From: an uncultured Thermoplasmata archaeon
Lineage (GTDB): Archaea > Thermoplasmatota > Thermoplasmata > UBA10834
DNA: 64,000 bases
Direction of reading: 5' to 3'
NCBI GenBank assembly: GCA_963748615.1
Contig: CAVVJQ010000002.1
Location: 323,240-387,239, forward strand
Position numbers and translations under genes: made by a program. Each line of letters begins with the position of its first letter. The first letter of the stretch is position 1. Below, piece by piece: positions 29,957-54,011 of this stretch. The notes under the pieces are model-generated. The model searched no databases and was not told the origin of the DNA. It worked only from the letters and a program-made list of their open reading frames with translations.

Positions 29957-30004
29957 CTTGTCAAAAGGCTTAACTACAGAGACAATCTTCCCAACATTCC
30001 GTCT

Positions 30005-30108
30005 GCCACTGTAGCTCAGCGGTTGCGTCTGCGACCATGCAGGTGCCGCTAGAGAGCGGCAGTTTCGTAAACTGCAGGCCGGGGGTTCGAAACCCTCCAG
30101 TGGCTCCA
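30005..30108 (+). tRNA. tRNA-Thr(CGU) with a 26-29-nt intron in the D-loop; CCA encoded
   Basis: Acceptor GCCACTG/CAGTGGC. D stem GCTC (30014-17) pairs with GAGC (30054-57) only after removing about 30024-30049/52. Anticodon stem GCAGT/ACTGC, loop TTCGTAA. T arm GGGGG-TTCGAAA-CCCTC. Discriminator T, then CCA. Confidence 0.8.
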
Positions 30109-30165
30109 TATCCACCCTCGTCATCCAAGTGACAACTCTAATATGTCAACGAGTCAATCGGCCTT

Positions 30166-37374: not shown

Positions 37375-38088
37375 TTGTTTAGAGACTCGATACAAGGTCT
37401 GGAAAAGGTTTTCAAGAATGACATCGAGAGGCCCAAGGTCATACTCGTCACCGGTCCCCCGGGATCGATGAAGACGAGCTTCTGCTATTCTCTGATGTCG
37501 CACTACCTGAGGGATAAGAACGAGTTCGGCCTCTATGCCACTCTCGAAGAGACGGTTGACAGCCACCTGAAGAACATGGAGAGCATGGGCGTGAAACTCT
37601 CCGCGAAGATGCAGATATCAGACATGACCGATCTCAGGGAGATCGACCAGATCGATGAGGTCATCGGCGATTCTGCGCAGACAGATTACGTACTGTTTAT
37701 AGAGAAGATGATACAGCGTTTCAGGAGGACTCACGGAGATAAGTTCTCGATATTCGTTCTCGACTCGCTCGGCGCGCTCTACTCCCTGATGGAGAACGCG
37801 GAGGACATGAGGAAGAAGATGTTCTATTTCTTCAAGATGCTCAGGGACAACAACCTCACATCATTCATAATCATGGAACGATCGTTGACAGGCGAGTCGC
37901 AGCTTCTCGGAAACGAAGGCTTTCTCGCAGACGGCATCGTGATGCTGGGTCTTGACCGTCAGAGGGGCAAGCTGGTGAGATACCTCCAGGTCGAGAAGAT
38001 GAGGGCCGCGGAGCACAGTATGGAGAAGCACGCCATAGAAGTCAACAAATCCGGAATGCAGGTGCTGGGCCCGTTGCTGAGCACTTGA
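37375..38088 (+). CDS. KaiC-like single-domain ATPase (ArlH/FlaH-sized)
   Basis: 237 aa. Walker A VTGPPGSMKTSF, Walker B IFVLDSLGAL, C-terminal LQVEKMRAAEH block. TTG start 7 nt after AAGGAGGG. Confidence 0.75.
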   Translation: MFRDSIQGLEKVFKNDIERPKVILVTGPPGSMKTSFCYSLMSHYLRDKNEFGLYATLEETVDSHLKNMESMGVKLSAKMQISDMTDLREIDQIDEVIGDSAQTDYVLFIEKMIQRFRRTHGDKFSIFVLDSLGALYSLMENAEDMRKKMFYFFKMLRDNNLTSFIIMERSLTGESQLLGNEGFLADGIVMLGLDRQRGKLVRYLQVEKMRAAEHSMEKHAIEVNKSGMQVLGPLLST

Positions 38089-38203
38089 CACCTCGACATG
38101 GCCGATGCTGCCCGTGTCGCGCAAACCCCATGAGTGTGCGCCGTCCATCCCCCTGGGATCAGGCGCTGATCACGAATGACCTTGTCAACAGGGAAAGGGA
38201 TCG

Positions 38204-39214
38204 ATGATGACAGAAGACCAGAGCATTTCGCAGATAATCGAGGACGCAGTCAAGAGCCTGAGGACCCAGGAGGCCGAGGTCCGCAAGAAGGATCAGGACG
38301 TTCAGGGCCAGAGGTCCGAGCTTCAGAAGATGAAGGCGGAGCTGGAGTCACGTGAACAGATGCTCCGCGAGAAGGAGGACTCACTGAGGGAAACGGAATC
38401 GTCCCTTGAGAGAAAGGACGAGGAGGTCACGGCTCGCGAGGCATCCGTCCAGACCAAGGCGGCCCAGGTGGATGCGAAGAATGCCGAGGCTCTGAAGCTC
38501 GAGGAACGGTCAAAGGCGGCCCTGGCGAATGCGGAGGCGAGGGAGCGGGAAGCCGAGACCTCGTTATCGGAATCATCTCGCGCCCAGGCCGAGACGACCC
38601 AAAAACGCAAAGTGCTCCTCGACCGGGAAGATCAGATGAAGAAGTCCGAGGAGGAACTCCAGAGGCTTATGGAACAGGTGGCATCGAGGCGTGATGCGCT
38701 CATATCTCGTGAGCGTTCCCTGGCAGCTGAAGAGGAATCCATCCGGAATGATCGCGAAAGACTCTCAGAAGACGCTCAGAGGCTCCTCAACAGACAGACC
38801 GAAGTGATCGAGGGCGTCACCGTGGAGCAGGCCGAAGGCATTGAGACAAGCAAGTCCGATCTGGGCGACGACGAGATAGAATGCCCCCGGTGCAAGACGG
38901 TCATAAGCAAGGACGCGATAATGTGCTATTCCTGTGGTCATCAACTGAGGGTGGTCGAACCCGAAGAGATCTCAGAGGATGCATCTGGCCAAGAGGACGA
39001 TGTCGAACCATCCGAGGAAGATGAGGTGTCCTGTCCGAAGTGCAGGACGATGGTCAGCAAGGGTGCGATAATGTGCTACGCCTGCGGTTCCGACCTGAGA
39101 GGTTCGCAGCAGGAAGCGGATGAGTCAGGAAGTCGCGAAGAGGAGAAAGTCGCAGAGGAACCCAAGAAGCCACAGGTCTTTGTCAAGAAGATCGTCAAGA
39201 AAAAGGTCGCTTAG
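38204..39214 (+). CDS. Coiled-coil protein with two C-terminal zinc ribbons (function unknown)
   Basis: About 220 aa of Glu/Lys/Arg-rich heptads, then CPRCKTVISKDAIMCYSCG and CPKCRTMVSKGAIMCYACG, and a basic tail. Confidence 0.7.
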   Translation: MMTEDQSISQIIEDAVKSLRTQEAEVRKKDQDVQGQRSELQKMKAELESREQMLREKEDSLRETESSLERKDEEVTAREASVQTKAAQVDAKNAEALKLEERSKAALANAEAREREAETSLSESSRAQAETTQKRKVLLDREDQMKKSEEELQRLMEQVASRRDALISRERSLAAEEESIRNDRERLSEDAQRLLNRQTEVIEGVTVEQAEGIETSKSDLGDDEIECPRCKTVISKDAIMCYSCGHQLRVVEPEEISEDASGQEDDVEPSEEDEVSCPKCRTMVSKGAIMCYACGSDLRGSQQEADESGSREEEKVAEEPKKPQVFVKKIVKKKVA

Positions 39215-39324
39215 CCAGCATCTGTTCGAACCCTTCGTCGCCATGAAAATATGGCAAATAGCTTTTTATATAGCCGAACTGCTTACTTTGATTCGCAATA
39301 CCCAGCATCTGGGTGGGTGAACTT

Positions 39325-40725
39325 ATGGAACACAGAGCTGGCCCTCTTCTGGCCAACAGATCTCTGAGCGCATTGATTGTAGCCACATTCGTGCTGTCGG
39401 CGTTCGCCGGGTTATTCGTAATGTCGAATCCTGCGCCTACCGCTGCACAGACACCGATCGGTGACCTGAATGTAACTGCCGGCACATACACAATCGAGAA
39501 TGTGAACCAACCTGTAGATGGTGATGTTCTCGTCAGTGGTGGGGAGCTGATAATACGGAACGCTGCTTTGCTGGTGATCAGCAACGAAGGTGTTCAGCGG
39601 ACGGTGACGGTCGAGACCGATGGAACCATGATTCTTGAACATGGCACTCTCACCACCTATCTGGATCAGATCGATCCATGGCCGTTCCTGGTTGTGGATA
39701 TCGATGGAGGGACTCTCATAGCCTCGGAGCGGTCGCTATTGAGTTTCCCAGGCTCGATCACCGTACAGAACGGTGGCGAGCTCATACTGTATGACAGTAC
39801 TATCGAGCCGCTACCTGCAGGGGATATATCCTTGTACCTCTCAGGATCCCCCACGGTAGCCATTGACGCCGCGGATGATGGACCTGAGATCTCAGTCATT
39901 GACGGCTCAATAATGATGTTCGATTCCGAGATAACGAGCCTTCCGGAATATCCTTCCCTGGGTCTCGTCGCAAGCAACCTCACTCTGAGTGGAGAATCTA
40001 CTCTGCTGGCGGTCAACAGCTACATCAGTGTTGACTTCGGACCTGACGTTAGTGCATCTGATTGGTACACTCATAATATGCTGGTCTTGTCGAATTCTTC
40101 AAAAGCCCATCTTTACGGAACATATTTCGATGAGTATTCTGGTAGCTACTCGGCGAGGTCATCTGCCGTCCTTGCTGATGGCGAAAGCTACATTGCATTG
40201 CCTACTTCCTCTGGATCAGAAGATACTACGGGACAACCTTACACTGATCTCCTGGCCAGCAATGAAGGTTCAACATACCACGTCGCTCCAGGGGATGTAA
40301 TGGCCATTGATACTTTCAGTGCAGGTCCTCCAGCGACAGTTGATGAAGCAACGCTGTATGTGAGATATCTCGTGGATGCCGGATATAACGGCGCGAGATC
40401 ATTTACATGGTGCCTTGAAGGAGGAACTGCTGCATCAACTGGAATCACTCCATTGCCGTCTGAGACTTCCTTCGTAGAGAAGAGCTTCGATTTGCGTGAT
40501 GCGGGAGTAACCACCACTAGCGATCTTGCTGATTTGGATATCAACTTCATACACGATGGATCAACAGGCGATGTTCAAGTGGACAGCATGTCCATTGTAA
40601 TCTCTCTGGGGCCAGAAGCCTACATATATAGATGGATCAACCTGACAGTCGGCGATGAATACGGCGTGCCGATTCCCGACTGTGACATTTCATCGACATT
40701 TACGGGGTCTTTGACAGTTCTCTGA
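39325..40725 (+). CDS. Giant surface adhesin, N-terminal part (signal peptide and beta-helix-like module); probably the 5' portion of one gene continuing at 40718
   Basis: ATG 39325 is preceded by GGTGGGTGA. Signal/TM LSALIVATFVLSAFAGLFVM. The ORF ends inside an Ig-like domain that starts YIYRWINLTVGDEYGVPIPD. Confidence 0.75.
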   Translation: MEHRAGPLLANRSLSALIVATFVLSAFAGLFVMSNPAPTAAQTPIGDLNVTAGTYTIENVNQPVDGDVLVSGGELIIRNAALLVISNEGVQRTVTVETDGTMILEHGTLTTYLDQIDPWPFLVVDIDGGTLIASERSLLSFPGSITVQNGGELILYDSTIEPLPAGDISLYLSGSPTVAIDAADDGPEISVIDGSIMMFDSEITSLPEYPSLGLVASNLTLSGESTLLAVNSYISVDFGPDVSASDWYTHNMLVLSNSSKAHLYGTYFDEYSGSYSARSSAVLADGESYIALPTSSGSEDTTGQPYTDLLASNEGSTYHVAPGDVMAIDTFSAGPPATVDEATLYVRYLVDAGYNGARSFTWCLEGGTAASTGITPLPSETSFVEKSFDLRDAGVTTTSDLADLDINFIHDGSTGDVQVDSMSIVISLGPEAYIYRWINLTVGDEYGVPIPDCDISSTFTGSLTVL

Positions 40726-40795
40726 TCAGCCATCTTTCTACTTCGGACTGGGTGAGGGAAGTTCATCTGTTCCACCACAAGTTGTACTTGATTAC

Positions 40796-43700
40796 ATGGA
40801 CGAGACCGCTGAATCATTTGGTGTCACAGGCCCACTCGGTGCCGCGACCATACCCCTAATGACTGATTTGGTGTCTGGTGGCCAATCTCCCAACTCTCTG
40901 TTTGTCGGAAGTTATAGTATTACTGGAACCGTCATACAGGGCGCAGTGGAGCATGCATCAAACGAAACCTTCTCATTCCCTGCATACCCTGCGATGTCGA
41001 TTACAGATCAGCAATTCGACATGACGGTCGATGTTCAAGGCATATCTGCCGAGAGCCCTGACCCATCCAAGTGGTTAGTTGTTCCGCCAAACCTAACGAT
41101 CGAGAACATGAGCTACTATCACGCGGGCGATGTCATAGTGGCGTCTGATGGTAATCTCACGCTGAGGAACGCAGTCTTTGAGCTAGTCCAGTCAGTTGCG
41201 AATGAGAGAACCGTCTATGTCGATGGAACTGCCAACTTCGTGATCGAGGACTCTCAGGTGAACAGTGCATTCGCGATCGATATCATAGTCAAGGGCAATG
41301 GGACGCTCGAAGTCAACAGGTCAGTTCTGAACGGCGTGAACATAGTCGCTATGGACGACGCGCTCGTGATTCTCAGAGATACTGACTTTGATGGTACGTT
41401 GAGCACTTCATGGGACTCATCGGCTAGAATCGTGGTCGTCGACTCCGTACTTGCTATGGCGCCGGTACTGTCTGGCAATGCGTTGGGAGAGTTTACGAAC
41501 TCGAGTGTTCCATCGATCGTGATAACGGAAGACGCAAGAGCATTGATCTACAGATGGATCCACGTGACCGTTCTAGATGGTGGAGACAACCCCCTGCCAG
41601 GAGCGACTGTGTCGACATGGTTCTTTGTGAACGGTACATACTGGTCGAGTGCGCTCAGCGACGAATCGGGGATAGCAGAGATTAGATCCCTGGGAACAAT
41701 ACTGACATCCGAAGGCTCGACGTTTGTCGGCAACTACAAGATCAACTCGACATACATGAGCGACGGAGAAATGCATTTCTCGGATCTGACGATATCCATA
41801 GGCGTCATGCCGTATACTCAGCCCCTGACTGAAAACGCAACATACGCCGTGCTGAGAATGTCCACAGTCGTACTTCCCGATCTTAGCGTGAGGCCGGGTT
41901 ATATTTGGACCGAGCCAGTGGATGTCGTGTACGACTCTGAATGTACGATCTTCGCCTTCATAGAAAACACCGGAGATAAGGTCGCTGAAGATGTTATGGT
42001 TGAGTTCTTGATAGGAGCAGATATCGAGACGGCAACCCTTCTGAATTCGACCGTGATTTCAACGATAAACTCGGACAGTCAGGTGACTGTTCATGTAGGT
42101 TGGATTCCTGACAGTATTGGGACATTCACAGTATGGGTCCGGGTCAACGGTGGGCTCGACGGAACCCCGGATTTCAATGAGCTTTCATTCATTGACAACC
42201 AGGAATGGGTCTACATCCGAGTGTTGGACTACGCTGACCTCTCGCTGAATGCGATCGAATTCTTGGCCGGCGACCCGTTGTTTGCAGTGTCGACCATGCC
42301 TGGCGGACAGACCGTATATGTCCGTTCAGTGTTGTTCAACAACGGTGAGGCTCCAGTCTTGAACCCTGAAGTATCATTGACTGTGAACTATAGCGACTCT
42401 GAGAGCGAGGTCTTCAATCAGACACTGTACGGTGTTCTCTATGGGGGCGCTCAATTCGCGGTTGAGTTCGAGTATTCCGCACCATTTGTGGTGAACAACA
42501 CTGTTTTCACTTTCACAATGGAAGCGAACCCCTATGGTGCAGTGATGGAGACTGACCTGACAGACAACGTGGTGACGGATACGCTCACCATCCTTGATAT
42601 CCGTGAAGATTTCAAAGTCGCCGCGGATGACATCTCGGTGGAAGACGATTCTTATGCCCACGAGTTCGGAACCCGGGTCAATATTACGGCCAATGTCTAC
42701 AACCTAGGTGGAACCGACCCAGGCTATGTGAGCATCGAATTCTCCATTAGGTTGGGCGACTCTCTGAACTACTTGATTGGCATCAAGGAAACGAACATAC
42801 CTGCAGGTATGTGGACGCCAGTCAGAATGCCGTATATGATAAACCTGACGGTTGGAGCAACATATTCCATATTCGTGTCCGTAGACTATGACAACAACCG
42901 GTCGAATGAGAAGAGCGAGACGAACAACAATGCATCGATAGATTTCGAAATCATCGATCTCGTTTATCATATCGAAATTACATCCGACGCGAGCGAGTAC
43001 AAAGCGGGCACCAATGCAGAGGTGACCCTGTACATCTTCTATGGCGCAGAGGCGCCGGCGTCAGGTGCGGAGAAAGCCGTATCTGGGTTGCCAGGTATTT
43101 CCGTTAACCTCGTGAGCCCCGGCGGAGATATTCTCAAGCACGCGGATGCCATTTCGACATCCACGGGCGGTCAGGCAGTATTTACTGTGGTGCTCGATGG
43201 TGAACTTGAGACTGGTCAGTACACGCTAGTCCCAGTCGTTCTCGGAGACGAGCAGCCCAGCTCCTCGATTACGATAAGTGTAGACGGCGCGGTTTCTGGT
43301 CGTGGCATTGCATTGTGGGTATGGCTCGCAATAATCGGGGTGATCGTTGGTTCCGTTCTCGGAGTTACTGCTTATATCTATTTCCGAGGCCTCGGCAAAC
43401 TGGTCGAGTGTGGAGAATGCGGCGCATTCATCCCTGCTGGGAACAAGAGATGCCCGAAGTGTGGAGTCGAGTTCGAAGTCGGCACGATGAAATGCTCTGA
43501 GTGCGGAGCATGGGTGCCTGCAGAATCGACCGAGTGCCCCAACTGCGGTGTGAAGTTCGTTGGCGAGGAGATCGGTGAAGAGGATTACCTCGAGAAGATG
43601 AGAGGCGAGTACGACGAGATGGTCTCTAAATACCGCGAACTGGCAAAGCCCGAGCTCGGAAAGAAGTTCAGCGACAAGAAGTTCGAAGAGTGGTGGGCGA

Positions 43701-44110
43701 CCCAGCCGACATACATCTCTTTCGAGGATTGGCTCGCAAAGGAAGAGGAGAAGCATAAGGAGGGCCCGGTACCATGCCCTGTCTGTGGCACTATGAACCC
43801 GAAGGAATCGAGCGTATGCCACAAGTGCGGCACGGTCTTCGGAGTCGAAAAGGACGTGCCTCCAGGAGAGCAGCCGCCGACCCCACCATCCTCAGGCGAA
43901 CAGGTGCCAGAACCATCCAGAGTCGAACCTGCTCCGCCAGGTGAGAAGGCTCCAGAACAACCGAGCCCACCTCAAGCTGCGGCGCCCAAGATGGTCATCC
44001 GAAGACCCATCGATAGAAAGGTGGTCCCGAAGAAGATCATTAAGACTCCGATAGCGAGGACTTCGGATAAGAACGGCAACGAGTCCGACAACAGCGATGA
44101 TCAACAGTAG
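40796..44110 (+). CDS. Giant surface adhesin, C-terminal part: beta-helix-like, CarboxypepD_reg-like and CARDB repeats, TM anchor, cytoplasmic triple zinc-ribbon and Pro-rich tail
   Basis: No signal peptide. At least three CARDB-like units (e.g. PDLSVRPGYIWTEP...IENTGDKVAEDVMVEF). TM IALWVWLAIIGVIVGSVLGVTAYIYF at about 43303-43385. Ribbons are CGECGAFIPAGNKRCPKCG, CSECGAWVPAESTECPNCG and CPVCGTMNPKESSVCHKCG. The frame is open back to 40715. Confidence 0.8.
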   Translation: MDETAESFGVTGPLGAATIPLMTDLVSGGQSPNSLFVGSYSITGTVIQGAVEHASNETFSFPAYPAMSITDQQFDMTVDVQGISAESPDPSKWLVVPPNLTIENMSYYHAGDVIVASDGNLTLRNAVFELVQSVANERTVYVDGTANFVIEDSQVNSAFAIDIIVKGNGTLEVNRSVLNGVNIVAMDDALVILRDTDFDGTLSTSWDSSARIVVVDSVLAMAPVLSGNALGEFTNSSVPSIVITEDARALIYRWIHVTVLDGGDNPLPGATVSTWFFVNGTYWSSALSDESGIAEIRSLGTILTSEGSTFVGNYKINSTYMSDGEMHFSDLTISIGVMPYTQPLTENATYAVLRMSTVVLPDLSVRPGYIWTEPVDVVYDSECTIFAFIENTGDKVAEDVMVEFLIGADIETATLLNSTVISTINSDSQVTVHVGWIPDSIGTFTVWVRVNGGLDGTPDFNELSFIDNQEWVYIRVLDYADLSLNAIEFLAGDPLFAVSTMPGGQTVYVRSVLFNNGEAPVLNPEVSLTVNYSDSESEVFNQTLYGVLYGGAQFAVEFEYSAPFVVNNTVFTFTMEANPYGAVMETDLTDNVVTDTLTILDIREDFKVAADDISVEDDSYAHEFGTRVNITANVYNLGGTDPGYVSIEFSIRLGDSLNYLIGIKETNIPAGMWTPVRMPYMINLTVGATYSIFVSVDYDNNRSNEKSETNNNASIDFEIIDLVYHIEITSDASEYKAGTNAEVTLYIFYGAEAPASGAEKAVSGLPGISVNLVSPGGDILKHADAISTSTGGQAVFTVVLDGELETGQYTLVPVVLGDEQPSSSITISVDGAVSGRGIALWVWLAIIGVIVGSVLGVTAYIYFRGLGKLVECGECGAFIPAGNKRCPKCGVEFEVGTMKCSECGAWVPAESTECPNCGVKFVGEEIGEEDYLEKMRGEYDEMVSKYRELAKPELGKKFSDKKFEEWWATQPTYISFEDWLAKEEEKHKEGPVPCPVCGTMNPKESSVCHKCGTVFGVEKDVPPGEQPPTPPSSGEQVPEPSRVEPAPPGEKAPEQPSPPQAAAPKMVIRRPIDRKVVPKKIIKTPIARTSDKNGNESDNSDDQQ

Positions 44111-44248: not shown

Positions 44249-46006
44249 TCAGGTCCGCTGAGGAGGGCCGGTCTCTGCCAGTTTCGCTCGGACCTCTTTC
44301 ATGACCTTGTCTGGATCCTTGTAATATGCAGATATGATGGTGGCGACCTTCTTGTGATTGTCGATACTCATCTTCTTCATGTACTCGAGAATGTCGACAC
44401 GCCTCTTGATCTCCCTTTCCATCTCACGCGGGGCCCAGTTCCTGGCCATCCTGACCTTCTCGTAAACGTAGCTGTGGCCGCTGTAGTTGAAGGTATCATC
44501 TGCCGGGTTCCATGTGTAGACGGAGTTCGTGATCAGCTCATCTGTCTCAGGGTCTATTCCGACGATCTCCGTCAGTGACTTGACCCTTCTGGTCATTTTG
44601 GTCCCGACCTTGACCTGCGCCTGCAATAGCACGATGTTGAGGGCGGTTATCAATGCCCTGGGCAGGTTGATGGGGTCGTTCTCCATCCTATGGACCATCG
44701 CCTGGACATCCTCTGCGTGGAAAGTGGAGTAACAGGTCTTGCCAGTCGCCATGGCTTGGAATACGACATACGCTTCCTTGCCTCTGACCTCACCGACCAT
44801 CAGATACTGGGGCCTCTGCCTCATGGCAGCAGTGAGCAAGTCGAACATATCTATCTCGCCGGAAGACCTTCCCGTGATCATACTCTTCCCACCGAAGCCC
44901 TCTCGAGTCAGACCAGGGACCCAGTTCTCATGGGGTAGGTTGAGTTCTCTAGTATCCTCGATGGAGACGATCTTCATCTGTGGCGGGATGAAAAGCAGGA
45001 CCGCGTTCAGCGTCGTGGTCTTTCCGCTCGCGGTACCTCCGCACACGAGCATCGATTGTCCATGCTCGATGCCTATCCAGAGGTATGCCATCATTTCGGT
45101 ACTCATCGTCTTGAATTTGAGTAGGTCGAGCGGCGTGAACGGATTCTCCTTGAACCGTCTGATTGTGAACGACGAACCTCTCTTCGTGACATGCTTTCCG
45201 AGGGTCGCCTGCAATCTCGAACCGTCCGGGATCGTTGCGTCCAGAAGCGGGCTTGCAACCGAGATGTGCTTACCGCACTTCTGAGCAAGCCATACCACGA
45301 AACCGTCGAGTTCCACCTCCTTCTCGAATCTGAGGTTGGACCTTATTGAACCGTATTTCCTGTGGTAGATGTACAGCGGGACGTCGACCCCATCGCAGGA
45401 GCAGTCCTCCACATTCGGTTCGGTCATCATCACGTCGATGACGCCATACCCAAGGAAATCCCTCAGGAGATAGTACATGACCCTCTCCTTGGATACTGGA
45501 TGCAGCGATATGCCCAGCTGATCCATGAGCTCTTCGATGATCCGCCTGAGGTATTTCTCCTTCTCGGAAGGTTCCTCCTCGGTCATCTTCTCGACAGATG
45601 CGATCAGAGTCTCCTTCAGCAAGGCGAGCACGGCTGCCTCGTCTCCCAGCAGCTTCGGCTCGATCACCTCATATGTGTACTCGTTGGCTTTGTTATCGTA
45701 CCTTATCCTGACATACGAGTAATTCTGCTTGACTGGTACCATCTCGACCTCGTCGATATTCGACTCGGTCAGTTTTGGTATCTCGGTGATCTGGCTGATA
45801 TCGACCTTCACTTCGTTCTTTGTGATTGCGATCATCGCAGGTCTGGGCTTAATCTTCATGAGGAAACCATAGTACGCCGCGAAAAAGCCTCCGCTCTTCG
45901 CCTTCTCCTCCGCTGGAGGGGGAGTCTTCTCGTCCGTTTCAGGCGCGTTTGGCTGCGGTTCCTCCGTCTCTATCTTGACCTGCTCGGTTTCAGACATCTC
46001 AATCAC
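44249..46006 (-). CDS. Type II/IV secretion-family ATPase (ArlI/EpdL/CpaF-like), copy 2
   Basis: Walker A CGGTASGKTTTLNA, EDTRELNLPHENW, Walker B/His box MVGEVRGKEAYVVFQAMATGKTCYSTFHA. GTG 46006 overlaps the upstream stop; ATG 45997 is an alternative start. Confidence 0.9.
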   Translation of the reverse strand: MIEMSETEQVKIETEEPQPNAPETDEKTPPPAEEKAKSGGFFAAYYGFLMKIKPRPAMIAITKNEVKVDISQITEIPKLTESNIDEVEMVPVKQNYSYVRIRYDNKANEYTYEVIEPKLLGDEAAVLALLKETLIASVEKMTEEEPSEKEKYLRRIIEELMDQLGISLHPVSKERVMYYLLRDFLGYGVIDVMMTEPNVEDCSCDGVDVPLYIYHRKYGSIRSNLRFEKEVELDGFVVWLAQKCGKHISVASPLLDATIPDGSRLQATLGKHVTKRGSSFTIRRFKENPFTPLDLLKFKTMSTEMMAYLWIGIEHGQSMLVCGGTASGKTTTLNAVLLFIPPQMKIVSIEDTRELNLPHENWVPGLTREGFGGKSMITGRSSGEIDMFDLLTAAMRQRPQYLMVGEVRGKEAYVVFQAMATGKTCYSTFHAEDVQAMVHRMENDPINLPRALITALNIVLLQAQVKVGTKMTRRVKSLTEIVGIDPETDELITNSVYTWNPADDTFNYSGHSYVYEKVRMARNWAPREMEREIKRRVDILEYMKKMSIDNHKKVATIISAYYKDPDKVMKEVRAKLAETGPPQRT

Positions 46007-46935
46007 GCAAACAGTATTCTGAGGGAAACGAACCCTGCGACCAACATGATGAAGCTGTGCCTCATTCCTATGGGGATGCTGCCCTTTTGAATCACACCAG
46101 CGAGTATTCCATCTCCGACCGCATGTACTACTATCGCAAGCAGGAACACGAACCCGACCTCGTCAATGACCGCGACCTTGATGTTGACCCCTGGAATCTC
46201 CTGCAACCCCATCTCCTGGGCGGATTCGTTCACAGTCGTCCCTGCCTCTTCCATCTTGGGCAGGAACTGCAGGTTGAGGATCAATATTGTCGCAATGAAC
46301 ACGAAGAATGAAATGTAGACGACCATCACATATGTCGACATGGTCACGTTCCTCTCTTCCTGTGTGAGGATGGTCTCCTTGGCATCATGGGAAACCATCG
46401 TGAGGACATCGGCAACGTTGCCGCCAGCATCGTTAGCTTTCCGTATTATCGATGTCATTCTTATGACCAGTGGCGTCTTGACCCTCTCCGAGAACAATCT
46501 GATGGCCTCAGATGCTGGCACACCCCATTCTATCTGCGCAGACATCTTCTTTATCTCTGGGGTCAACCGACCGTATCTGCCGGATGATGCGATGACGATT
46601 GAATCCGCCAAAGTCATGCCGAACCTTCCCGCCTCCGCCACATCCCTGAGGAAATCGGGCAGTCTGGTCTCGATCTCCCTGATGTGCTTCTCCTTTGCCG
46701 AAGTGTAAAATCCGTAGGGGGCAAGGAATGCCAATATTCCAAAGATGACGTAATCAATCGGTTCGAACGGGAGTGAAAGGCTACCTATCCCATCTATGAT
46801 CGCCAAGAAGATGCATATGCCCACAGCGGCGAACGAACCTGCCAGGATGGTCTTGGTTTTATCAGACTTCTCAGTGGAGAGGATCTTCTTGATCGCCCTC
46901 TCCTGCTCTGCCTGGCTGAGTTTCTTCGTTGTCAT
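46003..46935 (-). CDS. T2SSF-domain platform protein (TadC/EpdK-like half-platform)
   Basis: Start set at ATG 46935, 1 nt after the upstream TAG. Two N-terminal TM helices, a cytoplasmic helical T2SSF-like domain (LPDFLRDVAEAGRFGMTL...) and C-terminal TM helices. Confidence 0.75.
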   Translation of the reverse strand: MTTKKLSQAEQERAIKKILSTEKSDKTKTILAGSFAAVGICIFLAIIDGIGSLSLPFEPIDYVIFGILAFLAPYGFYTSAKEKHIREIETRLPDFLRDVAEAGRFGMTLADSIVIASSGRYGRLTPEIKKMSAQIEWGVPASEAIRLFSERVKTPLVIRMTSIIRKANDAGGNVADVLTMVSHDAKETILTQEERNVTMSTYVMVVYISFFVFIATILILNLQFLPKMEEAGTTVNESAQEMGLQEIPGVNIKVAVIDEVGFVFLLAIVVHAVGDGILAGVIQKGSIPIGMRHSFIMLVAGFVSLRILFA

Positions 46936-46936
46936 T

Positions 46937-47980
46937 CTACATCGCCCCTTCCTGTGACATGTTCCAAATGACAAATATGAATCCAAACTGTGAGATCGGG
47001 ATCATCCCTAGGACGATCAGATAGAGGAGCGTGACCATCATGTTGGAGTCGCCTCCACCCACGATTGCCATGATCGCCATGATGAGGACAAGGAAGAGGG
47101 GGAAAGCAACGACGACGGTGACGAAGGATTCAGCGAGCATGCCGAGCGTCTCCATCTGGGACTTCATGGCAAGCTTGTTCTCTTTCTGGTATTCATCCGC
47201 CTTGAGCAGGAAGTACGGCTTGAGTTGCCCGCCAGATGTAGAGGTAGTGACGACACCCTGCAAGAACTCCTGGAACTTGGCCGAGGGTGATCTCTTCGAA
47301 GCCTTCTTGATAGCGGTCAGGATATCCGACCCCAGAAGTTCCGTATCTCGCGTGATCCACGAGGACTCCTCTGAGATCTCCCCGTAGACCTTCTGTCTCG
47401 AGAGTTCCTTGAATATGACATCTATATTGACATCCGCGGACGCCATGGCCGAGATGAAGCTCATCGCAGCTGCGATCCTCTTGTCGATATCCCTGCCTCT
47501 GGACTTGGCCTTCGAGGCTGGTGATCCCATGAGCATCATGAACGCCATCATGGGTAACAGACCGATTGCAAGGCCCGATATCAAGATCCTTATGACTAAC
47601 GATACGCCCAGCACCCCGAAGAGGATGACGCCGACGACCACTGCTATGACTACTCCTATGATGAGTGCGACGATAGTGCTCATGAGCACGAAGGCATAGT
47701 ATTCTTCCGCCCGTATCTTGATGTGGGCCTTGGTGAGTGATTCCTCAAGGCTTTGGTTGTTGGCGCTGGTCATCCGCTCACTCGCATACTTGCCCATTAT
47801 GCGCCAGGACATGTCCTGAAACTTGGTCAGACTGATATAGTCGGGGACAGCGCCCTTGGTCAACCGGATCCCATGAGGTCCGATATCCTCCCCTCTCTGG
47901 GTCAGTTTGGTCTTGAGGTACTCTCCCTTCTTGGTCTCGACTCTCTCGAAGACATCGGAGACTTCAGGCAGAGTCGGCAC
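46937..47980 (-). CDS. T2SSF-domain platform protein (TadB/EpdJ-like half-platform)
   Basis: 347 aa with central TM pairs and a T2SSF-like helical domain (DIDKRIAAAMSFISAMASADVNIDVIFKEL). The GTG start overlaps the end of ATPase copy 1 by 17 nt. Confidence 0.75.
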   Translation of the reverse strand: MPTLPEVSDVFERVETKKGEYLKTKLTQRGEDIGPHGIRLTKGAVPDYISLTKFQDMSWRIMGKYASERMTSANNQSLEESLTKAHIKIRAEEYYAFVLMSTIVALIIGVVIAVVVGVILFGVLGVSLVIRILISGLAIGLLPMMAFMMLMGSPASKAKSRGRDIDKRIAAAMSFISAMASADVNIDVIFKELSRQKVYGEISEESSWITRDTELLGSDILTAIKKASKRSPSAKFQEFLQGVVTTSTSGGQLKPYFLLKADEYQKENKLAMKSQMETLGMLAESFVTVVVAFPLFLVLIMAIMAIVGGGDSNMMVTLLYLIVLGMIPISQFGFIFVIWNMSQEGAM

Positions 47981-49733
47981 CTCCCGTCGGCATCTTCAGA
48001 CCGCTCTGGGAGGCTGCGGGATACATGTCCTTTCGAACCTTCTCCGCTTGTCCCTTGGGGTCCTTGTAGTATGATTTGATGATGTTCCAGATGTCCACAT
48101 GGTCTGACATGTCCTTGGACACCATGTATTTCACGATATCCACACGGCGCTCGAATTCCTCCAGGAGTTCTTCGTGTGTGAGATTCTTCATCTCCATGAT
48201 CTTGTCAAACAGGAAGCTGTGGCCCTTGAAGATGAACTTATCCGTGGCCTGATCCCATTCGTAGACCGTGTTGCTGATGAGTTCGTTCGTTTCGGGTTCG
48301 AAACCAACGATCTCGATGAGCTGCTTGACCCTCCTGACCATGTCCATTCCTACTCTCGCATGAGTCTGGATTATGACATTCCTCAGGGCAGTTAGCAGAA
48401 TTCTGGGACAGTTGATGGGCGGGTTCTCAAGTCTGTTGACCATGCCCTTGACAGAATCCGCGTGCATGGTCGAGAAGGTAGTGTGACCTGTCGCCATCGC
48501 CTGGAACATGGTGTAGGTCTCCTTTCCTCTAACCTCTCCGACGATGATGTAGTTAGGCCTCTGTCTCAACGCGGCCCTGACGAGGTCGTACATGTCTATC
48601 TCCCCTGCGGCCTTTCCATCCGGCCCCCGTTCGCCTGAGCCAGTTCTTGTCGTGCCAGGGATCCAGTTCTCATGGGGTAGGTTGATCTCTCTAGTATCCT
48701 CCATGGTGACGACTTTGGCACCAGGGGGTATGAACAGCGACATTGCGTTGAGCGTCGCCGTCTTTCCACTCGCCGTGCCTCCGGCTATGATGGCCGACTC
48801 TCCATGCTCGACGCTGAGCCACAGGTACGCGACTATCTCCGGTGACGCCGTGCCATACTTGATCAGCTCGACAGGCGTGAACGGTTTCTCCTTGAATCGT
48901 CTGATCGTGAACGATGCACCCCTCGTAGTCACTTCCCTCGCGTAGGTCGCCTGGACTCTGTGCCCTTCAGGTGTAGTACCATCGAGTATGGGGTTCGAGA
49001 CGGAGAGCTGCTTCCCACATCTCTGACCAAGTGATATGACGAACGAGTTGAGTTCGTCCTCATCCTCGAACACGACATTGGTCTTGATGGATTCGAATTT
49101 GTTGTGGAAAAGGAACAGCGGGATGCCCACGCCATCGCAAGACACGTCTTCGACATGAGTGTCACTCATCATTGCATCGATCGGACCATATCCGACGAAA
49201 TCCCTCGTGATGAAGTATTTCACCTTGTCTTCCGAGATCGGTTCAAGCCGGATTCCTCTCGACCTGATATAGCTGTCCACGCTCCTCTCAAGGTAAGTCT
49301 TCTTGTTCATGTGGTCGAGCTTCGCCCATTCATAATCGAGGGTCATCTCGAAGGTGCTCTTGATCTTCTTCATCAGCGCGTCTTCATCTTCGGTAAGCAC
49401 TGGCTCGATCACGTTCATTATGTAATCGCTGGTGGCCGCGTTGTATGTTATTCTCACGTAGCTGAACGGGTCAACCACTGGATAGAACGCCATCTCCTGG
49501 ATATCCGGGTCCGTGATGGGTGGGATTTCGGTGTACGGTGAACCCTTCCCATCCTTCCACTGCTTCCTTCTGGCAGCTGCGCCCTTCGCGGATTTGACCT
49601 TGATGGGTTCGGACTTGAGCCTGCTCACAGCGTTTATGTATCCATGCCAGATGCGAGCACCCATTGGCCGTCTAGGGGCTTTCACGGGTATGTCATATTC
49701 AATTTTCGCCTCTGCCTCAGCCAAAACGCTCAC
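47964..49733 (-). CDS. Type II/IV secretion-family ATPase (ArlI/EpdL/CpaF-like), copy 1
   Basis: Walker A AGGTASGKTATLNA, EDTREINLPHENW, IVGEVRGKETYTMFQAMATGHTTFSTMHA. GTG start 2 nt after the upstream TAG. Confidence 0.9.
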   Translation of the reverse strand: MSVLAEAEAKIEYDIPVKAPRRPMGARIWHGYINAVSRLKSEPIKVKSAKGAAARRKQWKDGKGSPYTEIPPITDPDIQEMAFYPVVDPFSYVRITYNAATSDYIMNVIEPVLTEDEDALMKKIKSTFEMTLDYEWAKLDHMNKKTYLERSVDSYIRSRGIRLEPISEDKVKYFITRDFVGYGPIDAMMSDTHVEDVSCDGVGIPLFLFHNKFESIKTNVVFEDEDELNSFVISLGQRCGKQLSVSNPILDGTTPEGHRVQATYAREVTTRGASFTIRRFKEKPFTPVELIKYGTASPEIVAYLWLSVEHGESAIIAGGTASGKTATLNAMSLFIPPGAKVVTMEDTREINLPHENWIPGTTRTGSGERGPDGKAAGEIDMYDLVRAALRQRPNYIIVGEVRGKETYTMFQAMATGHTTFSTMHADSVKGMVNRLENPPINCPRILLTALRNVIIQTHARVGMDMVRRVKQLIEIVGFEPETNELISNTVYEWDQATDKFIFKGHSFLFDKIMEMKNLTHEELLEEFERRVDIVKYMVSKDMSDHVDIWNIIKSYYKDPKGQAEKVRKDMYPAASQSGLKMPTGGADSA

Positions 49734-49735
49734 CT

Positions 49736-50779
49736 CTAGGGGGCCACCTCGCCCACTGTAACCTGTACCGTCGCGTGCGTGTGGTCCAGGACGTTCACAT
49801 CCTTGATCGTGACTGTCAATGTGTAGTAATCGTTCTGAGTGCCTTCCAAATCATGTAACGTCAGAGGTCCTATCGAGAAGTCAGTATCGTATGTCAAACC
49901 GGCCAACGAGTTGTTGAGTGCCTTGTTGAAGTAAGTATGCCAAGCGTGTCCGTGCTTGCTCACTATCGTGAATGTAAGATCCGCTCCCGCGCTGCTTTCG
50001 TATACATTGGTGTTCGCATAGAGGAGGTCCGCGTATATCCCCTTCGTGCCAGTCCCACCCACGGTCTTATCAAGGCCAAGCATCGAGATCTGCGTCAGTT
50101 TGACGACTCTGCTGGAATCAGTTCCAGCAACGATATCCGTGACCGAGAACTGAAGCCCCGCGATGATGTACTCTCCATCCGATTGGTTGAGTATCAGGGC
50201 GCCACAATCATAGGTCAGATGCTGTTCGACATAGTACCTGTTAGGTGCATAGAAGTCGATGTATCCGCCAGAGTGTCCGTCATCGGTTGTGCTCAACGTC
50301 TGATCGTCGCCAACAAATGTCGAGTTGAACGATGGATACCCCGCGGTGGTTTGAGAACCGAATTGTAATATCCCTGCAGTGGGTGCAGCGAATATAGGTA
50401 TGCCCTGGGCATGTAAAGTTATCGGGACGAAAACGGGAGTGGGGGCCAGAAGGCTGTTCGAATAGTCCGCGACCAACCCGTCGATCTGGGACTTGAGGTA
50501 GATCATCTGCTGAACGACCGTCGCCATGTGCGCGCTCTCGTTATCGCTCATCCAGACAGGGACGAATTGGTTGGTGAACATGCCCATGAACGTAAGGAAT
50601 ACAAGGAGCGACATGATAGTGCCGATTGTCGAAGCAACCCCCTCATCATCGTTCCATCTCGGTGATCGCTTAATACGGCCAATTACGGAGTTTCCAGAAT
50701 AGCTATTTCGAATTTCTGACAAGTCCATCCTACCACCGAAGGGGGGTTTCTGAAGCAACCTAATCAGCGTCTGAAACAT
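49736..50779 (-). CDS. Pilin/FlaF-like membrane-anchored beta-rich protein (first gene of the filament operon)
   Basis: Charged N-terminus, then EG|VASTIGTIMSLLVFLTFMGMF (class-III-signal-like). The rest is Thr/Gly/Tyr-rich beta. An in-frame ATG at 50728 (preceded by GGTGGTAGG) is a likelier start, because the TTTAAATA box abuts 50779. Confidence 0.6.
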   Translation of the reverse strand: MFQTLIRLLQKPPFGGRMDLSEIRNSYSGNSVIGRIKRSPRWNDDEGVASTIGTIMSLLVFLTFMGMFTNQFVPVWMSDNESAHMATVVQQMIYLKSQIDGLVADYSNSLLAPTPVFVPITLHAQGIPIFAAPTAGILQFGSQTTAGYPSFNSTFVGDDQTLSTTDDGHSGGYIDFYAPNRYYVEQHLTYDCGALILNQSDGEYIIAGLQFSVTDIVAGTDSSRVVKLTQISMLGLDKTVGGTGTKGIYADLLYANTNVYESSAGADLTFTIVSKHGHAWHTYFNKALNNSLAGLTYDTDFSIGPLTLHDLEGTQNDYYTLTVTIKDVNVLDHTHATVQVTVGEVAP

Positions 50780-51629: not shown

Positions 51630-54011
51630 TTATCTTATGTGGTCCAGTGAGAACGATCCGATGTTCAGTCCGGATTTGGTGAAAGAGTATCTAATGAACG
51701 CTCTTGACTGGACCTCGCAGATACCCTTCACCGATAGGAACATGTTCAGGTTCTCGAGTTTGAACTCGATCATGCCGTCCATGAGCGACCCGAGCATCTG
51801 AATCTCCTGATCCCCATGTACGCCCTTCTCAATCGTGTACATGGAGACTGCTTTGTCTCTCTTTCTTCTGCCAGCGACTGGGCTGAGGAATCGGAATGCC
51901 GTGTTCGGATCCAGATACGCTATGAGTGTGGAGATCGATCTGAACGCCATTCTATAGTATTCGTGGTCTTTCTTGAATCCCTTGGCCGCCTTCTCCAACG
52001 CCTTCTGAATCGATTCATAATCTGTTGGGGCCTCGACGTAATCCGTGTATGGGTCCTCGGTCTCGTCACCCATGCTCCGGGAATACATGTCCACGTATCT
52101 CACGAGTCCCCTGCTCTCATACTCCTCGTATCCTGAGAGCACGAACATCATCTCGTTCCTGATCTCCTTCGGTGATTTCTCGGTGATGACCCATATCGCG
52201 GGGATTCCTTTCTTCAACCCCTCTGCGATGAATGAATTCATGAGCACTTCCTTCCCAGTGAAGGGCGGGCCATAAATGAGCATGTTCGATCCGAAGGGCG
52301 CGCCGCCCAGAAGCAGATCATCGAGTCTGGTGGTCCCGGTCTTGACCTTCTCCTGTTTGAGTTCGATGAGTCTGTCCTGCTCCCTCTTCTCGATCTCATC
52401 TGTTATGAGCCCTTGCTCCCTCGCCCGGAGTTCTTCCTCCTTCATCGAGAAGTACTTCTCCTTGTTCCTTATCTCCTCTTCCTTCTGGGTGATCTGCCCC
52501 TGCAGCTCTTCGAGGCGTTGTTTCATGGTTAATTCGTCAGTGTTCATGAGGTCGCTCTTCTGTTGGGAGACCCTCTTCAGTTCCTCCTCTAGGAGCCTCT
52601 CCCTGAACATCAGGTCCTCCTCTCGGCGGATCATCTCCCGCTCCTTGTAGGCCAGCGGTTCTTTGAGCTTCTTCATCTCATCGTCTCGTATCCTCAACTC
52701 TTCCTTGAGCCTCTCCAATTCTTGCTCCCTCAGAGCGAACGATCGCTCGAGGTTCTGGGCCTCTTCCAACCTCTTCATTAGCGCTGGGTCCAATGCGGAG
52801 CCCTTAGCCGCGGATACCTTCGCTTTCTCTTCCAGATGTTTCATGTCGAATTCTGTCCGGGAGAGTTTCGCCTCCAATTCGTGTATCTGTTCGTTGAGCT
52901 CGCGTTCCTTGGCGGAGAACTCCTCCAGCTCCCTGATGCGCTCTTCGCTGTCCGAAGGTCCTCTTCCATAGGACATTATGCCTTCCTGGAGTGTGTTCTC
53001 CTTTGCCTTGAGCTGCAACTCATAAGCATCGATCTGGGCCATCCTCTGCGATAGCTCGATCTCCTGGCGCTTGAGGACCTGTGCATCCACGGGCATCTCG
53101 TTGATGCCCTTCTCCGTCTTTTCCCTGAGGTCCGTCAGTTGGTTCTCGAGCTCCATGACTTTCAGCCCGAGATCCTCCTTCTGGGCCATCTCGGACGCGA
53201 GCTTGTCCGTGAGGTTCTCCGCATCAGCCGGTGCCCCCTGTTGATTCTTGATGAATTTGATGACTGCGATGCTTCCGCGTTTGACATTCTCCAATTCCTC
53301 TTCCAGCTGCTTCCTGTGAACGCGCTCGGCCTCGACTTCGCTCCTTGTATGGGCTAGTTGTTCCAGGACAGCCTGAGGGTCGAACCCCTCCGTCTCGAAC
53401 TGCTTCAGCGTCTGTTTCAGTGTTTCGCGGAGTTGTGTGATTTCCTCACCGTGCTCGAGCATCTCCTCGGGCACGGTCTTCTCAGATTTGGGGATGCTCT
53501 TGATCTTGGGTTCATCGAGCCATGACTCAAGCCCCTCCTCGGTGCCAGCGAGCCACTTGGCTAGAGAATCGTCACGGATGAGCTCAGGTTCGGTCGCGGC
53601 CACCACATTCTTCTCCTCATGGTCCTCTCCCGAGATCCATGCGGACAGGCCTTCGTCCTCACCAGCCAACCAATGGGCGAGCTCCTTGTTCTCAGGACTC
53701 GCCAGCGATTGGGCGCCCTTGATTATCTTCGCGGCCAATTTGTCTCCGATGCCTCTGACTCCGGCCAATTCATCATGGTCTGCATTCTGCAGGTCATTGA
53801 CATTCCTGTAGCCGGCTCTGAGCAATAAATGAGCTTTTGCCTCGCCAACTCCAGGCACCGACCTAAGCTCCTCGATGTCCCCATCGCTTGAATGAGAATC
53901 CTCTACTAAGGGGGCAGCACAGTGCTCACAGCTGCCCTCGGAGACGGAAGACATCTGCCCGCAATTCGGGCATGAGACGTGACTCTTTTCCGCGTCATCT
54001 TTTTTCGGCAT
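51630..54011 (-). CDS. Zinc ribbon, tandem HhH, long coiled coil and a C-terminal KaiC-like domain (function unknown)
   Basis: CPNCGQMSSVSEGSCEHC; HhH pair LRSVPGVGEAKAHLLLRAG...ELAGVRGIGDKLAAKI. A duplicated motif is present (LAHWLAGEDEGLSAWI and LAKWLAGTEEGLESWL). About 400 aa of heptads follow. The C-terminal RecA-fold domain has LLLGGAPFGSNMLIYGPPFTGKEVL, i.e. P-loop GK followed by E rather than T/S. Confidence 0.75.
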   Translation of the reverse strand: MPKKDDAEKSHVSCPNCGQMSSVSEGSCEHCAAPLVEDSHSSDGDIEELRSVPGVGEAKAHLLLRAGYRNVNDLQNADHDELAGVRGIGDKLAAKIIKGAQSLASPENKELAHWLAGEDEGLSAWISGEDHEEKNVVAATEPELIRDDSLAKWLAGTEEGLESWLDEPKIKSIPKSEKTVPEEMLEHGEEITQLRETLKQTLKQFETEGFDPQAVLEQLAHTRSEVEAERVHRKQLEEELENVKRGSIAVIKFIKNQQGAPADAENLTDKLASEMAQKEDLGLKVMELENQLTDLREKTEKGINEMPVDAQVLKRQEIELSQRMAQIDAYELQLKAKENTLQEGIMSYGRGPSDSEERIRELEEFSAKERELNEQIHELEAKLSRTEFDMKHLEEKAKVSAAKGSALDPALMKRLEEAQNLERSFALREQELERLKEELRIRDDEMKKLKEPLAYKEREMIRREEDLMFRERLLEEELKRVSQQKSDLMNTDELTMKQRLEELQGQITQKEEEIRNKEKYFSMKEEELRAREQGLITDEIEKREQDRLIELKQEKVKTGTTRLDDLLLGGAPFGSNMLIYGPPFTGKEVLMNSFIAEGLKKGIPAIWVITEKSPKEIRNEMMFVLSGYEEYESRGLVRYVDMYSRSMGDETEDPYTDYVEAPTDYESIQKALEKAAKGFKKDHEYYRMAFRSISTLIAYLDPNTAFRFLSPVAGRRKRDKAVSMYTIEKGVHGDQEIQMLGSLMDGMIEFKLENLNMFLSVKGICEVQSRAFIRYSFTKSGLNIGSFSLDHIR

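Follow-up and report, generated by a model that had tools for sequence, protein, structure and literature searches.

A Thermoplasmata family of giant surface proteins with a conserved zinc-ribbon module in the cytoplasmic tail, often encoded beside a type IV pilus cluster

Introduction

Surface proteins anchored by a single transmembrane (TM) helix are a known kind in archaea, and those that form surface layers (S-layers) have only a short basic tail in the cytoplasm (bioRxiv 10.64898/2026.08.21.746120). Herein we describe a giant gene, located at positions 39325-44110 of a 64,000-nucleotide stretch of DNA (the window) from an uncultured, wall-less Thermoplasmata archaeon (assembly GCA_963748615.1, contig CAVVJQ010000002.1, forward-strand positions 323,240 to 387,239), which codes for a protein of this kind; its conserved cytoplasmic module is the undescribed part. 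Our reading of the locus, which is tentative and held with somewhat less than even confidence, is that it represents a family of giant, glycosylated surface proteins of type I, restricted to the Thermoplasmata, whose tail would dock cytoplasmic machinery encoded by the neighboring genes.

The Thermoplasmatales have no S-layer, and are covered by a disordered exterior protein layer of about 20 nm and of unidentified composition, proposed to anchor surface machines (PMC12448462). Also in this group, the CdiP pilus of Cuniculiplasma divulgatum, described in 2025, has two ATPases, the second of which was called enigmatic, and a platform that is split (PMC12448462). In archaea more broadly, KaiC-family ATPases and zinc-ribbon proteins are recurrent unexplained companions of type IV pilus loci (Makarova, PMC4858521). 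The widespread tail family described here, genetically tied to such a pilus cluster, is a concrete candidate for the means by which cells without an S-layer anchor their surface machines and link the outside layer to the cytoplasm.

A conserved zinc-ribbon domain in the tail

The repaired product of the giant gene (about 1594 aa; the repair is described below) is a type I membrane protein, which ends in a tail of 241 aa. The features of this region are as follows.

43304..43384, plus strand: single TM helix GIALWVWLAIIGVIVGSVLGVTAYIYF, from hydropathy
43409..43549, plus strand: double zinc ribbon with eight invariant Cys (Pfam DZR; predicted local distance difference test score, pLDDT, 81-87)
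43577..43759, plus strand: three-helix segment with invariant Y, M, Y, F, WW, F, W residues (pLDDT ~95)
43766..43834, plus strand: third zinc ribbon CPVCGTMNPKESSVCHKCG (Pfam Zn_Ribbon_1 above the cut-off; four invariant Cys)
43859..43984, plus strand: Pro-rich variable linker, not conserved and predicted to be disordered (pLDDT ~50)
43985..44050, plus strand: conserved polybasic peptide PKMVIRRPIDRKVVPKKIIKTP, near-invariant among orthologues

The folded core of the tail comprises 143 residues, in which two ribbons are followed by a three-helix bundle and a third ribbon. In the AlphaFold2 model of the tail, built with 22 aligned tails, the first two ribbons (residues 6-58) have a pLDDT of 81-87, the helices (65-94, 97-106, and 113-125) of about 95, and the third ribbon (128-150) of about 89, while from residue 156 onward the score is about 50 and disorder is predicted. 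The double ribbon is above the gathering score of the DZR family (PF12773; cut-off 27.3), with 37.2 bits on ORF2, the downstream one of the two open reading frames (ORFs) of the gene, and 42.7 bits on the tail alone. A sequence-only reading of the window had placed in this region a TM helix at about 43303-43385 and a tail of roughly 240 aa with three ribbons, a proline-rich segment, and a basic end. All of these were found, the ribbon motifs lying at 43409-43465, 43493-43549, and 43775-43831. A tail poorly conserved and disordered across homologues would have spoken against the same reading; instead, the core is well conserved and predicted to be folded, and the last ~85 residues are predicted to be disordered.

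The core of the tail is the best-conserved part of the giant protein: homologues that share 35-45% of their ectodomain residues with the window share 65-75% of those in the tail. When 66 tails were aligned, the near-invariant blocks were the double ribbon, the helical segment, and the third ribbon, together with a C-terminal peptide of consensus P(K/R)MVIRRP(I/V)DRKVVPKKIIKTP. Directly after the TM helix, the 12-Cys pattern of the family (VECGxCG...CPxCG...KCSxCG...CPxCG...CPxCG...CxKCG) is complete in the window, as is the invariant pattern Y..M..Y, F..WW..QP..F..WL of the helical segment between ribbons 2 and 3. Even in a deliberately diverse set of 15 tails, the 12 Cys and ten aromatic positions are invariant. 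Most likely, the tail binds three zinc ions through the 12 Cys. Beyond the core, distant members have acidic or Gln-rich linkers in the place of the Pro-rich one, and repeated KKVVKKP units also occur in such members.

The helical part is covered by no Pfam or NCBIfam model; marginal sub-threshold Pfam matches to DUF7479, TerY_C, and HypA extend only a few residues into its start. When the whole tail fold was compared with the Protein Data Bank (PDB) by Foldseek, nothing was found below E 0.1 (best E 0.11), and the literature searches found no paper describing the tail or the family. The tail core is a previously undescribed, compact, and most likely zinc-binding domain of ~143 residues, without structural or functional precedent, which lends itself to expression, structure solution, and use as bait.

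Single ribbons of the tail do resemble RanBP2-type fingers, the ribosomal protein eL40, and the ArnA ribbon. For this reason, and because the KKVVKKP repeats are reminiscent of nucleic-acid-binding tails such as that of histone H1, the tail might be thought to hold the nucleoid, RNA, or ribosomes at the membrane. We consider such a tether very improbable: only the generic ribbon fold is matched, with E above 0.05, the core domain of the tail is acidic overall, and no nucleic-acid-related neighbor is conserved outside the clade of the window.

Membrane topology

Sustained hydropathy peaks were observed only for the TM helix and for the signal-like helix at the N-terminus; two single 19-aa windows in the predicted all-beta ectodomain barely pass the threshold. 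The TM helix is present in 189 of the 189 family members checked, with a mean best 19-residue hydropathy of 2.85. The two sides of the helix differ markedly in composition: N-x-S/T sequons number 22 in the ectodomain and 1 in the tail, Cys residues 3 and 12, and the Lys content is 0.9% and 10.4%, respectively. Over the 189 members, the mean count of K+R in the 15 residues next to the helix is 0.55 toward the ectodomain and 1.41 toward the ribbons, with 139 members having more on the ribbon side and 12 fewer. Taken together, the signal peptide, the distribution of sequons and Cys, and the positive-inside bias leave N-out/C-in as the only reasonable topology, which is thereby strongly supported as a prediction. 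The placement of the ribbon tail inside the cell, proposed in the sequence-only reading, is upheld by these data, which contradict the opposite arrangement with the ribbons outside.

Family distribution

An exhaustive phmmer search with the tail over 1.84 billion representatives matched 861 proteins at E < 1e-3, 288 at E < 1e-10, and 164 at E < 1e-30. The module is always in the C-terminal region of its host proteins, which have ~1000-4500 aa (maximum 4499), the shorter matches being fragments, and the ectodomains that carry it vary widely. Among species-representative genomes, 134 stretches encode a relative. All the named carriers are Thermoplasmata/Thermoplasmatota, including Methanomassiliicoccales, Saliniplasma, Natronoplasma, and Lutacidiplasmatales, with the exception of one contig binned as Candidatus Paceibacterota (L013, 2154 nt). 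The tail on that contig is 79% identical to that of the window, and the contig is probably an archaeal one mis-binned into a bacterial metagenome-assembled genome. A word-indexed search with the tail profile yielded for the most part fragments at contig edges, and none of its matches was from a cultured organism. In the databases, the homologues are named "hypothetical protein", "CARDB domain-containing protein", or, wrongly, "ribosomal protein L40E".

A distant subfamily (L067-L084, for example L074 7664-10660) has a tail identity below 46% and proteins of 850-1130 aa. Its members keep the double ribbon and the helical domain, have no polybasic peptide, and carry the third ribbon at the extreme C-terminus, after a long Ala/Pro-rich linker. 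Their neighbors are housekeeping genes. In two other loci (L031 7862-18402 and L032), two tail-bearing giant genes are found in tandem, which indicates that paralogous expansion occurs.

Gene neighborhood and candidate partners

The gene order in the window is gyrB, gyrA, a KaiC-like ATPase, a coiled-coil zinc-ribbon gene, the giant gene, a pilus cluster on the opposite strand, and a gene for a KaiC protein with helix-hairpin-helix (HHH) motifs. The immediate neighbors of the giant gene are the following.

37375..38088, plus strand: KaiC/ArlH-like single-domain ATPase (Pfam KaiC 1.1e-33, synteny)
38204..39214, plus strand: coiled-coil protein with two zinc ribbons, ending ...PQVFVKKIVKKKVA (Pfam)
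44249..50779, minus strand: CdiP-type pilus cluster, convergent to the giant gene (Pfam and NCBIfam)

The pilus cluster contains a FlaI-like ATPase, two half-platform genes, a second FlaI-like ATPase, and a DUF7289-like pilin-like protein (49736-50779), in which a class-III-like leader, DDEG/VASTIGTIMSLLVF (DDEG/VASTIG), could be recognized by eye. Like the genes of type IV pilins and pilus-tip adhesins, the giant gene is encoded beside pilus ATPase and platform genes. In the loci examined, the CdiP-type layout is kept well beyond the Thermoplasmatales. With the FlaI-like ATPase as query, the relatives retrieved were all of 81-99% identity, and Cuniculiplasma was not reached.

The synteny was surveyed in 84 related loci, binned by the identity of their tails to that of the window. 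A convergent FlaI-like ATPase was found within 5 kb downstream of the giant gene in 11 of the 11 loci with a tail identity of at least 70% and in 22 of the 33 with 46-70%, that is, in 33 of the 44 loci with a tail identity of at least 46%, and in none of the 12 loci below 46%. The KaiC-like gene was upstream in 8/8, 14/23, and 0/15 of the loci in the same three bins. The most widely conserved neighbor of the giant gene is thus the convergent CdiP-type pilus cluster. In one locus of the saline-lake clade (L056), none of the outer flanking genes is the same as in the window, with those for the PolD small subunit and S3Ae at one end and those for PhoU and MgtE at the other; that the giant gene nevertheless lies next to the pilus cluster argues for more than inherited gene order.

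The coiled-coil protein is encoded directly upstream of the giant gene in 22 loci, and in all of them it has a polybasic-hydrophobic C-terminus. This end resembles the polybasic motif of the giant tail, and the two change in parallel between clades, as in these pairs.

Coiled-coil end FVKKIVKKK, giant tail VVPKKIIKTP
Coiled-coil end SIRKIIKRK, giant tail FRRIVRKS
Coiled-coil end KKILKRK, giant tail LRKIVKKPF

From the synteny and the conservation we infer that the tail module would be a protein-docking platform, tying the surface protein to the cytoplasmic machinery encoded beside the giant gene. In the mechanism that we propose, the protein would be exported by Sec and its signal peptide cleaved, after which about 1290 residues would project from the membrane of a host cell that is probably devoid of an S-layer. 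On the inner side, the flexible linker would present the conserved polybasic peptide beyond the folded tail domain. The first candidate partner is the CdiP-type pilus motor, with its two FlaI-like ATPases and split platform, and further candidates in the clade of the window are the KaiC/ArlH-like ATPase and the coiled-coil zinc-ribbon protein, whose C-terminus carries that polybasic motif too. As to the purpose, whether anchoring or signaling, the likeliest is structural: the protein would anchor or position the pilus machine with respect to the surface layer, in cells whose envelope lacks an S-layer that could be a stator. The protein itself is best read as an adhesin or as one of the constituents of the exterior protein layer.

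Several observations weigh against docking. The pilus cluster is not nearby in 11 of the 33 intermediate loci, nor in any of the 12 distant loci with enough downstream sequence, which indicates that the tail module also exists without such neighbors. The giant gene has a TATA-like element of its own and is convergent to the pilus cluster, so that the two are not one operon, and part of the synteny in the clade of the window reaches gyrB/gyrA and may be simply conserved gene order. A profile search of the PDB with the tail gave generic zinc fingers only, and no functional analogue. In the published account of CdiP (PMC12448462), no giant membrane protein, KaiC-like ATPase, or coiled-coil zinc-ribbon partner is described. 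Finally, the gene of the window is broken by an extra A, as discussed below.

According to the main rival, which we regard as rather unlikely, the tail would act only in cis: the zinc-ribbon/helical domain would oligomerize or cluster the surface proteins from inside, the polybasic peptide would stick to anionic lipids, and the disordered exterior layer would be organized thereby, the pilus and KaiC genes being merely co-located surface-related genes whose products do not touch the tail. The loci without pilus or KaiC neighbors fit this explanation, as do the very different ectodomains on which the module is found and the tandem paralogues, and basic cytoplasmic tails are normal in TM-anchored archaeal S-layer proteins (bioRxiv 10.64898/2026.08.21.746120). 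However, the coiled-coil neighbor, which is soluble, carries the same polybasic motif, and this motif co-varies with that of the tail, so that a shared partner fits better than lipid binding alone; furthermore, the adjacency of the giant gene and the pilus cluster in L056, where all the other flanks differ, speaks against action in cis.

The KaiC-like ATPase, which is directly upstream in 22 of the 31 testable loci with a tail identity of at least 46%, brings in a second alternative, in line with the inside-out or outside-in coupling suggested in the sequence-only reading, namely that the protein is a signaling receptor, in which a contact or ligand of the ectodomain would alter the tail, then the phosphorylation or the oligomeric state of the ATPase, and finally pilus activity or gene expression. 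KaiC-family ATPases have been proposed as regulators of archaeal type IV pili (PMC4858521), and autophosphorylation of ArlH controls its binding to ArlI, according to references 22 and 23 as they are cited in PMC12448462. Nevertheless, a receptor seems distinctly unlikely. A single TM helix on a rigid Ig-like stalk offers no obvious route for conformational signaling, and no kinase, phosphatase, receiver, or DNA-binding output domain can be recognized in the tail. Also, searches of Pfam, NCBIfam, and PDB sequences and folds for an output or partner domain of signaling families (RsgI/ZAS-like) gave generic ribbons only, and in the saline-clade loci, where the giant gene and the pilus cluster are both retained, there is no KaiC within 5 kb.

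The sequence-only reading had named as possible partners of the tail the products of 37375-39214, 26000-27715, and 51630-54011. The KaiC-like and coiled-coil genes of the first region are indeed conserved upstream, the product of 26000-27715 was discarded as a specific partner because it shares only generic ribbons with the tail, and the convergent pilus cluster at 44249-50779 was missing from that list.

Zinc ribbons are unusually frequent in the window, in at least nine proteins. For example, the product of 26000-27715 (plus strand, 571 aa) has a double zinc ribbon at aa 130-180, which matches the tail by BLAST with an E of 2e-8 over 57 residues, and that of 27731-30124 (minus strand, 797 aa), which is syntenic in L001, L002, and L004, has a CxxC...CxxC ribbon fused to a DnaA-type AAA+ domain and DUF835. 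The gene at 51630-54011 (minus strand, 793 aa), whose product combines a zinc ribbon at the N-terminus with helix-hairpin-helix motifs and an ATPase domain of the KaiC/DUF7504 type, is kept just past the pilus cluster in many loci. At 54221-56740 (plus strand), an HdrA-like flavoprotein is fused to an MvhD/FlpD domain, which is consistent with a Methanomassiliicoccales-related energy metabolism.

Architecture of the ectodomain

The ectodomain is composed of two modules, each with a beta-solenoid-like part and a CnaB-like domain, followed by a CARDB/Ig-like stalk, as listed.

39325..39450, plus strand: signal peptide MEHRAGPLLANRS with hydrophobic core, then PAPTAAQ (hydropathy peak; conserved N-terminus)
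39466..40180, plus strand: beta-solenoid-like module 1, limits approximate (profile-profile match to module 2)
40609..40978, plus strand: CnaB/transthyretin-like Ig domain 1, whose motif YIYRWINLTVGDEYGVPIP aligns to domain 2; the frameshift is inside it
41075..41527, plus strand: beta-solenoid-like module 2, with short regular strands (AlphaFold2 model m58ff3f581859)
41537..41803, plus strand: CnaB/transthyretin-like Ig domain 2 (Foldseek)
41876..42145, plus strand: CARDB domain 1 (Pfam PF07705, 31 bits for the fragment alone)
42191..42565, plus strand: putative Ig-like unit (sub-threshold match to NPCBM_assoc, NEW3, only; Pfam E 0.19)
42659..42937, plus strand: CARDB domain 2 (Pfam PF07705, 23.1 bits; cut-off 22.7)
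42941..43303, plus strand: membrane-proximal Ig-like domain (faint MG2 match, Pfam E 0.043)

The signal peptide consists of a charged stretch, a hydrophobic core, and an A-x-A-like site, the last just before an IGDL that is conserved in homologues. By eye, this A-x-A-like site follows the hydrophobic core, an arrangement different from that of a pilin-type class III signal peptide, in which a short charged leader is cut off ahead of the hydrophobic helix, and the giant protein was in this way ruled out as a pilin.

By hhalign, homology between the two N-terminal modules has a probability of 99% and an E of 2.7e-18. This duplication is seen only by profile-profile comparison, since BLAST of the repaired protein against itself revealed no internal repeats, and module 1 has no match in Pfam. 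Module 2 and its Ig domain were modeled by AlphaFold2 with a mean pLDDT of 92.2, as an all-beta, solenoid-like stack followed by a beta-sandwich. By Foldseek, the solenoid part shows weak similarity to phage tailspikes only, and the Ig domain matches CnaB2 (8bdw) and a domain of SlaB (8qox_B), both with a probability of 1.0. The two beta-helix-like modules of the sequence-only reading, each with an Ig-like domain, agree with these results, and the peptides by which it recognized them are present (NVTAG...RNAAL at 39469-39570 and LTIENM...RNAVF at 41093-41179 for the modules, YIYRWINLTV at 40621-40650 and LIYRWIHVTV at 41543-41572 for the Ig domains). At least three CARDB-like units had also been counted, of which two pass the Pfam threshold (49 bits for the whole protein, the two stretches together) and the third has only the sub-threshold match to NPCBM_assoc. 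MG2 is also among the Pfam families of the homologues P0044 and P0050, for which coordinates are not given, and it matches the membrane-proximal part (aa 1506-1579) of the L056 protein.

In comparison with L005 (window 39313-43300), the ectodomain is ~68% identical, the tail 94%, the coiled-coil neighbor 82%, and the flanking genes 86-100%. The fast divergence of the ectodomain is typical of exposed proteins under diversifying pressure, such as virus receptors.

Gene structure and the frameshift

Two reading frames of the window make up the giant gene, and these had been silently joined when 39325-44110 was read as a single gene product.

39265..39274, plus strand: TATA-like element TTTTTATATA, ~50 nt upstream of the start codon, read from the sequence
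39325..40725, plus strand: ORF1, frame 1, 466 codons, coding for the N-terminal part and ending at a premature TGA (40723-40725)
40715..44110, plus strand: ORF2, frame 2, 1131 open codons, with the first ATG at 40796 and the stop at 44108-44110

The ATG at 39325 is the start codon used by the homologues (MEHRAG...), and TTTTTATATA suggests that the giant gene would have its own archaeal promoter. Because frame 1 stops at 40723 and frame 2 is open only from 40715, the shift must fall within 40715-40722. Comparison by blastn with the contig of the homologue P0001 (L085) located it to a single extra A at 40716 (frame +1), where L085 has TTTGAC-GTTCTC and the window TTTGACAGTTCTC; this insertion is outside any homopolymer. 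P0001 is the closest relative (89% protein identity) and reads GSLTFSDQPSFYF / ...FTGSLTFSDQPSFYF... unbroken across the site, and P0002 (79% identity) has exactly the length of the repaired window protein. The intact frame used for this comparison comes from a contig that is 88.5% identical to the window; another relative, L086 (88.8% identical), ends ~380 nt before the site.

As a family trait, the gene is one continuous ORF with a signal peptide, a trait that the sequence of the window does not show: all the 66 full-length homologues (66/66) are continuous and of the same architecture, with ~1560-1750 aa and E = 0, which makes this a real gene family and not a chance similarity. The break is inside the first CnaB/Ig-like domain, which the homologues read through with no interruption, and ORF2 has no signal peptide; together, these facts point to one gene with a one-base insertion, and rule out two genuine genes. 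A programmed frameshift was also discarded, as it was seen in no homologue.

The extra A may be either an assembly error or a real and very recent mutation. If it is real, the gene of the window is a pseudogene, from which only a secreted N-terminal fragment of 466 aa could be produced; ORF2, having no signal peptide, would not be exported, and the locus would have no function here, whatever the family does elsewhere. We regard this as possible, if on balance doubtful. The frameshift is unambiguous in the sequence, and the giant gene is also broken in the L006, L027, and L087 assemblies (L087 3806-9642), where it is split into several frames amid intact gyrA, KaiC, and pilus genes. On the other hand, these other broken copies are on metagenome-assembly contigs, in which indel errors are possible; the fragmentation stems either from decay that has recurred or from assembly errors that accumulate in a gene variable among strains. 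Furthermore, the 1131 codons past the shift are still open and the tail is ~90% identical to those of the closest relatives; any inactivation would thus be extremely recent. The last fragment of the broken gene in L087 had appeared among the matches as a stand-alone small tail protein (P0227), which it is not.

Comparison with known systems

The closest described proteins are the TM-anchored archaeal surface proteins, such as PySLP of Pyrobaculum and SlaB of Sulfolobus (8qox). Like these, the giant protein would have a secreted, glycosylated ectodomain with a tandem Ig-like stalk, a single C-terminal TM helix, and a basic C-terminal end, and its CnaB-like domain matches SlaB; the signal peptide, tandem Ig-like domains, and C-terminal TM helix of S-layer-type proteins are all present. 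Their tail, however, is short and basic, while here it has 241 residues with a folded domain of 143, and is more conserved than the ectodomain. A paracrystalline lattice, such as S-layer proteins form, is not in evidence for the giant protein, and relatives of its lineage are reported to have no S-layer (PMC12448462).

With respect to the tail, the generic DZR and zinc ribbons (PF12773, PF13240, PF13248; the ArnA ribbon 8s05; RanBP2-type fingers) share the Cys4 ribbons of the form CxxC-x(n)-CPxCG, and single ribbons of the tail superpose on them at ~1 Å rmsd (root-mean-square deviation). In contrast, the combination of double ribbon, three-helix bundle, and third ribbon matches as a whole no Pfam model, PDB sequence, or PDB fold, and the invariant aromatics and the location directly after the TM helix are also particular to the tail.

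The pilus cluster of the window shares the unusual layout of that of CdiP, which comes from the same class of archaea: AapE/FlaI-like ATPases are encoded twice, and the platform protein in two halves. Orthology between the two clusters was judged by layout and family matches, not by a tree.

In the archaellum motor, the membrane-anchored ArlX forms a ring around the motor. The scaffold of ArlH with ArlX or ArlC/D/E is comparable to this locus only in how it would work, as a KaiC-like ATPase and a coiled-coil protein are encoded beside FlaI-type ATPases. No sequence homology to ArlX or ArlC/D/E was found, there are no archaellin genes, and the KaiC-like protein is far below the ArlH cut-off (25.9 vs. 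215 bits). The giant protein could be the missing envelope-spanning partner of the two-ATPase CdiP-type pili in Thermoplasmata devoid of S-layers, with its ribbon tail, the polybasic peptide, the coiled-coil zinc-ribbon protein, and the KaiC-like ATPase as a cytoplasmic collar round the motor; it might then be a stator or anchor of the pilus, or a surface "leg" that transmits force. To these possibilities, taken jointly, we give little weight.

Very large TM-anchored adhesins, whose cytoplasmic ends connect to internal machinery, are also known in wall-less cells, as in the Gli349/Gli521 "leg" proteins of Mycoplasma mobile and the integrins of eukaryotes. These share no homology with the giant protein, for which coupling to a motor is hypothetical, and they serve as an analogy only. 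Were the collar real, it would be an archaeal counterpart of the integrin-like or Mycoplasma-gliding-type coupling of the surface to the cell interior.

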